From an uncultured Clostridium sp. (GTDB taxonomy: Bacteria > Bacillota > Clostridia > Oscillospirales > Acutalibacteraceae): a stretch of DNA of 64,000 nucleotides. Where the stretch lies: NCBI GenBank assembly GCA_964571095.1, contig CAZNAC010000003.1, forward strand, positions 11,840 through 75,839. The letters run 5' to 3'. The notes beneath the pieces are model-generated. The model was given only the letters and a program-made list of their open reading frames with translations, was not told where the DNA came from and made no database searches. The position numbers were made by a program, and so were the translations under genes. Below, piece by piece: positions 35,201 to 36,293 of this stretch; position 1 is the first letter of the stretch, and every line of letters starts with the position of its first letter.

Positions 35201-36293
35201 TAACAGCAGACACGATGATAACTCCGAAATTTACAAGCTTCTTGAAAGCGGAAAAATTGACTACGTTGTTTATACCGGAGCACTTCAAGATTCAACAATG
35301 GGTGACTACATAGCACTTCACAGAAGAGCTGTTCAGCTTTCAATTGCCTGCATCACCTCTCTTGATACGGCGAACGCTCTTGCCGATATCATTGCAAGCC
35401 GTTTCAACCAGCAAAACACCGAGCTTGTTGATATCAATAATATGCGTTCGGAAAGAAAGTCACTTAAATTTGCTAAAATGGATGCATCCGGAAATGACCA
35501 TATTGTTATTGAAAACTTTGACAATTCTATCACTTGCCCCGAGAGTCTTTGCGTAAGCCTTTGCGACAGAAACCACGGAATCGGAAGCGACGGCGTTATC
35601 CTTGTTGAAAAATCCGATGTTGCACAGGTTAAAATGAGAGTATTTAATCTTGACGGCAGTGAAGGAAGAATGGGCGGCAACGCAATGCGTTCCGTTGCAA
35701 AATATGTTTTCGATAAAGGTTATATCGATACCGAAACAATAACAATTGAAACCGCAAGCGGCGTTAAAAGCGTTGACCTCTACACAATGAACGGAAAGGT
35801 AACCTCGGTTTGTGCAAATATGGGCAAAGCCGATCTTGATAACGCTGTTACGAGCACAATCGGTACAAACAGATTTATTGACTATCCCACTATCATCAAC
35901 GGTCAGGAGCAAAGAATTACCTGCGTTTCAATGGGCAATCCGCATTGCGTTGTTTTTGTTCCCAGAGTTGATACAATTGATATCGAGAAAATCGGTCCCA
36001 AATTTGAAAAAGCAGATATTTTTGCTCATAGAGTTAACACCGAATTTGTCAGAGTTGTTAACGAAACCACGCTTAAAATGAGAGTTTGGGAACGCGGTAA
36101 CGGTGAAACCCTTGCCTGCGGTACAGGTGCTTGCGCTGCGGCTGTTGCGGCTGTTGAAAACGGTTACTGCAAAAAGAATACAGACATAACCGTTAAGGTT
36201 AGAGGCGGCGACCTTATTGTTAACTACAGCGACGAAGGCGTTTACCTGACCGGCTCGATAAAGCTTGTTTTTGAAGGAACAGTTGAATATTAA
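32253..36293 (+). CDS. carB: Carbamoyl-phosphate synthase large subunit fused in frame to a C-terminal diaminopimelate epimerase (DapF)-like domain
   Basis: Residues 1 to about 1068 are full-length CarB: two ATP-grasp halves ([21 protein letters not shown] and [20 protein letters not shown]) plus an MGS-like tail. Residues about 1071-1346 (nt 35463-36290) align end to end with B. subtilis DapF as I recall it ([11 protein letters not shown].., [34 protein letters not shown]). It is a single uninterrupted ORF. Confidence 0.88.
   Translation: [1346 protein letters not shown]

Follow-up and report, generated by a model that had tools for sequence, protein, structure and literature searches.

Diaminopimelate (DAP) epimerase, DapF, inverts an α-carbon via a thiolate/thiol pair placed on opposite faces. 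Two further systems bear comparison with the protein described here. HisZ, a dead paralogue of histidyl-tRNA synthetase, is the histidine-sensing regulatory subunit of ATP-phosphoribosyltransferase, and mitochondrial carbamoyl-phosphate synthetase (CPS) I carries an inactive glutaminase-like domain in which the catalytic Cys is replaced. The subject of this study is a DapF-like domain fused to the C-terminus of CarB, the CPS large subunit. It is encoded in a 64,000-nucleotide stretch of DNA, referred to throughout as the window, from an uncultured Clostridium sp. of the Acutalibacteraceae (assembly GCA_964571095.1, contig CAZNAC010000003.1, positions 11,840–75,839, forward strand). The first catalytic Cys of the domain is replaced by Gly and the second is retained, and the same Cys has been lost repeatedly among related CarB~DapF fusions. 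On the best reading, the domain derives from DapF but is no epimerase, and serves an arginine-pathway CPS as a pseudoenzyme that binds a ligand or has a structural role. No publication on a CarB-DapF fusion was found in the literature searched.

Activity is lost in the C73A/C217A double mutant of E. coli DapF (PMC6061791). In the DapF homologue PddB it is nearly abolished by single Cys-to-Ser changes, with similar reports for M. tuberculosis DapF cited in the same work (PMC8225329). E. coli DapF also activates RppH non-catalytically (PMC6061791, PMC4227774). The DapF fold can hence act by protein–protein contact without epimerization, although the E. coli protein, unlike the window domain, is fully active and unfused. 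Compared with canonical DapF (EC 5.1.1.7; PF01678, TIGR00652; PDB entries 2otn, 9mro, 4ijz, and 2gke), the window domain has the same two-domain fold (TM scores 0.83–0.93), the same second catalytic Cys, the GNPH motif, and the residues aligned to N64, N157, N190, E208, and R209. It differs in having Gly in place of the first Cys (Ala in most relatives), in being fused to CarB, and in its arginine- rather than lysine-pathway context.

The fusion is encoded by a single open reading frame (ORF) of 1346 residues (Table 1). Its CarB part gives full-length matches to equivalog hidden Markov models (1374 bits against TIGR01369) and contains both ATP-grasp halves, the oligomerization domain, and the MGS-like domain. 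The junction with the DapF-like domain is short and well conserved; across 41 fusion fragments an NTE motif and one Arg are invariant, and an LVDIN motif is at least 90% conserved. The C-terminal 275 residues match Pfam PF01678 with 181 bits and are rather more likely to be a DapF-derived pseudo-epimerase domain than anything else.

Comparison with all PDB chains using phmmer places Gly1141 opposite the catalytic Cys of B. anthracis DapF (2otn, E = 2e-63) in an ungapped alignment. The cyanobacterial (9mro) and Arabidopsis (3ejx) DapFs also align without gaps, with the Cys of DGSE...C-G-N-G opposite Gly1141. MAFFT alignment with E. coli DapF pairs Gly1141 with Cys73 and Cys1289 with Cys217. The E. 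coli numbering used here holds because the reference sequence is 100% identical to PDB 4ijz/5ygu. The DNA around Gly1141 (within 35640–35700) reads GTA TTT AAT CTT GAC GGC AGT GAA GGA AGA ATG GGC GGC AAC GCA ATG CGT TCC. A first-pass annotation, made from the letters of the window alone, had proposed that the first catalytic Cys is replaced by Gly and that the second Cys and the GNPH motif are kept; the alignments to solved DapF structures, the MAFFT alignment, and, for the Gly, its placement in the AlphaFold2 model described below bear this out. Two further changes that it pointed out, GNG to GNA and RC to RS, are present in the window but call for some qualification, as some 40% of canonical DapFs carry Ala at the former position and only a minority of the Cys-less clade has RS at the latter.

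The Cys (TGC) and Gly (GGC) codons are one base apart and many database entries for this family are fragments, which might be taken to favor an artefact: a pseudogene, a stop codon spuriously read through between carB and dapF, or a sequencing or assembly error in which a single T-to-G change converts TGC to GGC. These explanations are effectively ruled out. An identical window protein is found on independent Logan contigs, and GGC is also the codon in two other species, the closest genomes to the window (L003, domain 91% identical; L004, 83%). The CarB~DapF architecture of the window is uninterrupted in more than 60 independent genome loci and assemblies. Finally, the ratio of nonsynonymous to synonymous substitution rates (dN/dS) among the window, L003, and L004 is low, at 0.057–0.082 for the DapF part and 0.046–0.065 for CarB.

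The extent of the Cys loss was determined from a scan of species-representative genomes, which returned 80 loci (one contig per genome, no two loci from the same assembly). Fused or stand-alone status was read from the open frame upstream of each match in these loci. Protein length was dropped as a criterion for stand-alone proteins, as representatives of 272–284 residues are often fragments of 1343–1346-residue fusions. A search of 50%-cluster representatives returned mostly ordinary DapFs and served as a background set only. With the window included, the domain counts comprise 71 fused copies, eight stand-alone dapF genes, and 101 full-length unfused cluster representatives. The Cys73 position lacks Cys in 57/71 fused copies (49 Ala, seven Gly, one Phe) and keeps it in 14. 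By contrast, all 109 unfused DapFs retain this Cys (8/8 stand-alone loci and 101/101 cluster representatives; Fisher p = 6e-34). Among the fused copies that lack Cys, Ala is the usual replacement; Gly, whose conservation the first-pass annotation had raised as a point to check, occurs in seven.

Fusions of approximately 1340–1360 residues are widespread in Oscillospirales-like Clostridia. The 120 proteins closest to the window domain in a collection of 5.8 billion sequences are mostly CarB(MGS)-DapF fusion fragments from Clostridia metagenome-assembled genomes (MAGs). Counts at the Cys73 position among them are Ala 100, Gly 12, Ser 1, and Cys 9, and the second Cys is kept in 120/120. Public names for the Cys-less fusion fragments (P0002, P0035, P0047, and others) are "diaminopimelate epimerase" at NCBI or "carbamoyl-phosphate synthase large subunit" at JGI.

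A neighbor-joining tree built with the Cys column masked groups Cys-less domains into one large clade. Ala is the ancestral residue of this clade, and Gly arose from Ala several times, the lineage of the window, L003, and L004 being one case. Isolated losses also occur inside the Cys-retaining fusion clade (L068, Gly; L070, Gly; L082, Phe; L078b, Ser). Fitch parsimony on this tree gives about five to six changes, all in fused copies, a soft count given that a neighbor-joining topology is approximate.

Despite the loss of a catalytic residue, the Cys-less domain is not decaying, and the purifying selection acting on it is about as strong as that on CarB. Across 54 full-length fusions, pairs lacking the Cys have a DapF to CarB divergence ratio of 1.40, compared with 1.51 for pairs bearing it. 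Of the columns conserved in at least 90% of canonical DapFs, only C73 and, in part, N11 are lost in the Cys-less clade; the N11 position is Asn in the window and Asp in 17/57 relatives. N64, N157, H159, N190, E208, R209, C217, and G218 are invariant in 57/57 Cys-less domains, whose mean identity is approximately 59%. Only 36/276 columns are invariant overall, and all eight of these cleft and catalytic positions are among them (hypergeometric p = 4e-8). The window protein has all ten of the residues N11, N64, G74, N75, N157, N190, E208, R209, G218, and S/T219, which are reported to bind substrate (Pillai et al. 2006). Column comparison with canonical DapFs revealed no new Cys or other obvious catalytic-type residue gained across the Cys-less clade. 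A shift of the catalytic Cys to a neighboring position, as the AGNC of some relatives might imply, was considered and rejected; position 76 is A/S/N/C/G and unconserved, with no clade-wide gain of Cys.

The AlphaFold2 model of the DapF-like domain is of high confidence (pLDDT 93, pTM 0.91). It places the Gly directly before helix 71–83 and the retained Cys directly before helix 219–231 (domain numbering), which predicts the mirrored placement seen in the DapF active site. The model has two pseudo-symmetric α/β domains, and the active site lies between the N-termini of two helices. The best Foldseek match to the model is DapF in complex with aziDAP (9mro_A; TM 0.93, root-mean-square deviation 1.8 Å), and other DapFs match with TM scores of 0.83–0.90. 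The modeled fold is thus intact and resembles the ligand-bound state of DapF.

It is very unlikely that the Cys-less domain carries out normal epimerization, because Ala and Gly provide no acid/base. We favor a ligand-binding pseudoenzyme, with a probability of roughly 0.55, because strong selection has kept the cleft as a whole, along with the second Cys and the fold. An alternative is that the domain is still an enzyme. It could use Cys1289 in a one-base reaction on a DAP-like or arginine-pathway substrate (α-proton abstraction followed by β-elimination/dehydration, or stereospecific exchange), or it could be a slow epimerase in which a water molecule in the Ala/Gly cavity acts as the second acid/base. 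Cys1289 with its helix cap, H159, and E208 are indeed invariant in 57/57 Cys-less domains, and Cys has consistently given way to Ala and Gly, the smallest residues, so that a water molecule would have room. Koo and colleagues are said to have reported in JACS in 2000 that single-Cys DapF mutants still eliminate HF from 3-fluoro-DAP, a further point for this alternative; natural DAP, however, has no β leaving group, and water serves poorly as the acid/base for a carbon acid. Neither the lack of a new catalytic-type residue in the Cys-less clade nor the variability of position 76, beside the lost Cys, fits a retained activity, which we consider unlikely overall. The proline racemase superfamily, which shares this fold, does provide examples of one acid/base Cys being naturally replaced, in the single-Cys trans-3-hydroxy-L-proline dehydratase (where the other residue is Thr) and in an active Ser/Cys 4-hydroxyproline epimerase (PMC4113996; PDB 6r76), and the dehydratase fold is among the Foldseek matches. 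These variants, however, have Thr or Ser and a defined chemistry on a known substrate, whereas the window domain has Ala or Gly and no alternative substrate is evident.

The gene context of the fusions differs between the two types. Among loci with enough downstream sequence, 7/14 Cys-bearing fusions and 4/7 stand-alone dapF genes have the lysine-pathway gene dapL directly downstream, and none of the Cys-less fusions does (0/43; p = 5e-7). An example is Ruminococcus sp. FC2018 (L066), in which dapL (10861–12069; TIGR03542, 491 bits) immediately follows a Cys-bearing fusion. The presence of dapL after Cys-bearing dapF at 11/21 loci, whether fused or stand-alone, suggests that the fusion arose from a dapF-dapL operon. 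Upstream of the Cys-bearing fusions there is carA but there are no arg genes, while many Cys-less fusions stand at the end of argC-argJ-argD-argF-carA-carB~dapF operons. A retained enzymatic activity finds no encouragement here; dapL, the lysine-pathway partner, never adjoins the Cys-less fusions, and a context holding only arg genes suggests no candidate substrate. The first-pass annotation had suggested a pseudoenzyme, a ligand-binding module, or a new chemistry. That suggestion gains support from the Ala or Gly found clade-wide, the lack of a compensating residue, the strong selection, the invariant pocket, and the loss of the dapL context.

In the window, argF lies directly upstream of the fusion. 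Together they look like a two-gene unit, argF-carB~dapF, bracketed by putative terminators recognized from their sequence as hairpins (Table 1). The fusion is the last gene of this unit, with no dapL after it, because a terminator-like hairpin directly follows its stop codon. The genes further downstream, rsgA, a PASTA kinase, and housekeeping genes, are on the opposite strand. No dapL match was found anywhere in the 64-kb window, tblastn revealed no second dapF and no carA in it, and an Rfam search showed no regulatory RNA near argF-carB. Directly upstream of the fusion in nearly all other fusion loci, carA is absent beside carB in the window, L003, and L004, where argF takes its place. The glutaminase subunit of the window CPS may be encoded elsewhere, or the enzyme may use ammonia. 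No second carB was present within any fetched locus.

The CarB half differs between the two types as well. The E. coli CarB residues K954, T974, T977, K993, N1015, and T1017, which we take to form the effector site for uridine and inosine monophosphates (UMP and IMP), correspond to M946, T966, T969, S985, Y1007, and G1009 in the window (alignment to 1bxr); residues 946–1009 are encoded at 35088–35279. Lys at the K954 and K993 positions is conserved in 11/11 Cys-type fusions and variable in the Cys-less clade. These substitutions suggest that nucleotide allostery has been lost in CarB of the Cys-less clade, which looks like an arginine-dedicated CPS.

The Cys-retaining fusions (Ruminococcus, including L066, Saccharofermentans, Neglectibacter, and others) share the architecture and the junction of the window gene. 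They differ from it in having both Cys residues, carA upstream, often dapL as the next gene, and Lys at the K954 and K993 positions of CarB. They are probably truly bifunctional and likely represent the ancestral state of the window gene. Neglectibacter caecimuris (L067) carries both a Cys-type fusion (4113–8192) and a stand-alone dapF (9980–10837), 1.8 kb apart; two copies can therefore coexist. A stand-alone dapF close to a fused copy was seen at only one other locus, L078.

We propose that an active dapF, often heading a dapF-dapL lysine operon, was fused to the 3′ end of carB to give a bifunctional protein. One lineage or paralogue would then have been recruited to an arginine operon, and its DapF half would have ceased to act as an epimerase. 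In the large Oscillospirales-like clade, the first thiol would have been replaced by Ala and later, in the window lineage, by Gly. The remaining cleft may bind DAP, or a close diamino or dicarboxylic analogue, non-catalytically, and cleft closure and/or DapF-type dimerization could act on the adjoining allosteric domain or on the stability or oligomeric state of the CPS of the arginine pathway. It is tempting to speculate further that the Cys-less domain is an allosteric sensor of CPS, of a new kind, in a large group of gut Clostridia. There it would clamp DAP or an arginine-pathway diamino or ureido acid, gate the arginine-specific CPS by cleft closure or dimerization in place of the degenerate UMP/IMP site, and so couple arginine synthesis to cell-wall and lysine precursor status. 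This more specific proposal is tentative, and on balance we doubt it.

Halves of the fusion that have decayed bear on the question of whether the domain is simply a structural relic. The DapF domain L078b has a relaxed pocket (N64L, C73S, H159S, E208K, C217G). The locus L078, from an Acutalibacter MAG, contains a split, possibly frameshifted carB with a degenerate DapF (2078–6171), followed by an intact stand-alone dapF (6843–7703). Decay in the reciprocal direction is seen in P0186 (L083/L084, 9006–12001), P0178, P0184, and P0198, proteins of 666–1046 residues with a CarB-like start (MPLNRQIK...), in which the CarB part is truncated or beyond Pfam recognition and the DapF half keeps both catalytic Cys residues. 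In P0186, a CarB remnant of approximately 390 unrecognizable residues precedes an intact two-Cys DapF. At L083/L084, the P0186 gene is itself preceded by a 328-residue carA remnant comprising only the GATase domain.

If CarB had come to need the DapF domain in order to fold, stay soluble, or assemble into dimers or tetramers, that domain could be entrenched for purely structural reasons, with no ligand and with the Cys loss neutral. The short, highly conserved junction suggests rigid integration, as this would require, and the CarB remnant of P0186 shows that dead halves do persist in this fusion family. That remnant, however, has decayed beyond Pfam recognition, and truly relaxed constraint would be expected to lead to quick pocket decay, as in L078b. 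Nor does a structural role predict that all eight polar cleft residues should be invariant at this level of mean identity, or that dN/dS should be as low as that of CarB. E. coli DapF requires dimerization and has a non-catalytic protein-binding role with RppH (PMC6061791), and the aromatic residue aligned to its dimer-critical Y268 is kept (LVFEG in the window). We judge a purely structural relic improbable and prefer a ligand-binding pseudoenzyme.

Several observations nevertheless weigh against the ligand-binding pseudoenzyme. We know of no physiological reason for control of an arginine-pathway CPS by DAP. That Cys1289 is absolutely conserved hints that the domain does more than bind and still has some chemistry, and the pocket residues may in part be conserved for folding. 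AlphaFold2 modeling of the MGS and DapF-like domains together, with the rest of CarB omitted, gave no confident inter-domain geometry (pTM 0.69, junction pLDDT 53–66). The 64-kb window contains no other route to meso-DAP (dapF, ddh, or dapF2). DapF-independent routes, Ddh and DapF2, exist in gut bacteria, and deletion of dapF in E. coli causes no growth defect (PMC9026213; bioRxiv 10.1101/2024.10.14.618325). Activity is also possible without the canonical Cys pair, as the natural Ser/Cys hydroxyproline epimerase demonstrates (PMC4113996). An imperfect pair alone is no proof of inactivity, because this natural enzyme still epimerizes.

By analogy with HisZ, the working model for the window protein would be a dead enzyme fold that has kept its amino-acid pocket and regulates amino-acid biosynthesis. 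HisZ, however, is a separate subunit with demonstrated allostery, whereas the window module is fused. A second parallel is CPS I, a carbamoyl-phosphate synthetase with a permanently attached homologous domain that Cys loss has disabled and that is kept for structural or allosteric reasons. The dead domain of CPS I differs in being a class-I amidotransferase, N-terminal, and of another lineage.

Table 1. Positions within the window of the CarB~DapF fusion gene, its constituent domains and active-site residues, and the adjoining features.
Feature	Position	Strand	Evidence or remark
Terminator-like hairpin upstream of argF	31186–31210		
Promoter-like site upstream of argF	31247–31275		
argF (ornithine carbamoyltransferase), directly upstream of the fusion	31308–32231	+	NF001986, 445 bits; TIGR00658, 428 bits
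CarB~DapF-like fusion, single 1346-residue ORF	32253–36293	+	ORF list; Pfam CPSase_L_D1/D2/D3, MGS, DAP_epimerase; NCBIfam carB equivalog, 1411 bits; TIGR00652, 258 bits
CarB part, residues 1–1050, complete carbamoyl-phosphate synthase large subunit	32253–35402	+	NF003671, 1411 bits (cutoff 599)
MGS-like allosteric domain of CarB, residues 949–1035	35097–35357	+	Pfam MGS
CarB/DapF junction, N1055–L1071	35415–35465	+	No flexible spacer; the DapF N-terminus directly follows the natural CarB C-terminus
DapF-like domain, residues 1072–1346	35466–36290	+	TIGR00652, 262 bits (cutoff 114.65); PDB 2otn, E = 2e-63
Asn1132 (E. coli N64), pocket	35646–35648	+	Invariant in the Cys-less clade
GGC, Gly1141, at the position of catalytic Cys73 (E. 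coli/H. influenzae DapF)	35673–35675	+	Ungapped alignments to solved DapFs
Asn1229-Pro-His1231 (GNPH; E. coli N157, H159)	35937–35945	+	Invariant
Asn1262 (E. coli N190)	36036–36038	+	Invariant
Glu1280-Arg1281 (E. coli E208, R209)	36090–36095	+	Invariant
TGC, Cys1289, second catalytic Cys kept (E. coli Cys217)	36117–36119	+	Invariant in 57/57 Cys-less fused domains
Intrinsic-terminator-like hairpin	36298–36337	+	13-bp stem and T run, 5 nucleotides past the fusion stop

A number of other features were observed in the window and among the proteins retrieved. Just upstream of argF (27171–31097, + strand) are genes for a GDSL-like lipase/acylhydrolase, a DUF4358 protein, an MBOAT/DltB-like protein, and a DHHW protein; this four-gene cluster is similar to modules for O-acylation of the cell envelope. 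Further upstream, proS is preceded by a T-box leader (Rfam RF00230, 125 bits) at 24890–25101 (+ strand). The real start of proS is probably near residue 54 of the ORF, at approximately 25141, because the mechanical ORF start at 24982 overlaps the T-box. At 10787–14326 (+ strand), the window encodes a protein of 1179 residues with a subtilase domain (Peptidase_S8), an Fn3-associated domain, and BspA-type leucine-rich repeats, which is probably a surface protein. Outside the window, P0220 (776 residues) has an N-terminal two-Cys DapF followed by Mur ligase middle and C-terminal domains. Possibly of DapF-MurE type, this protein would connect the formation of meso-DAP with the step that adds it to peptidoglycan.

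CarB~DapF is a widespread, unstudied fusion family whose epimerase half has, on repeated occasions, lost just one catalytic cysteine, with the remainder of the active site frozen. This has a direct bearing on annotation, as pipelines label these proteins and their fragments "diaminopimelate epimerase", and metabolic reconstructions of gut Clostridia may wrongly credit a DapF step. The family also offers a natural series for the study of pseudoenzyme evolution, comprising active fusions, some five independent Cys losses, a decayed pocket (L078b), and reciprocal decay of CarB (P0186). If the domain does sense a metabolite, it would represent an undescribed regulatory input to CPS, a textbook allosteric enzyme, in organisms that are abundant in animal and human guts.

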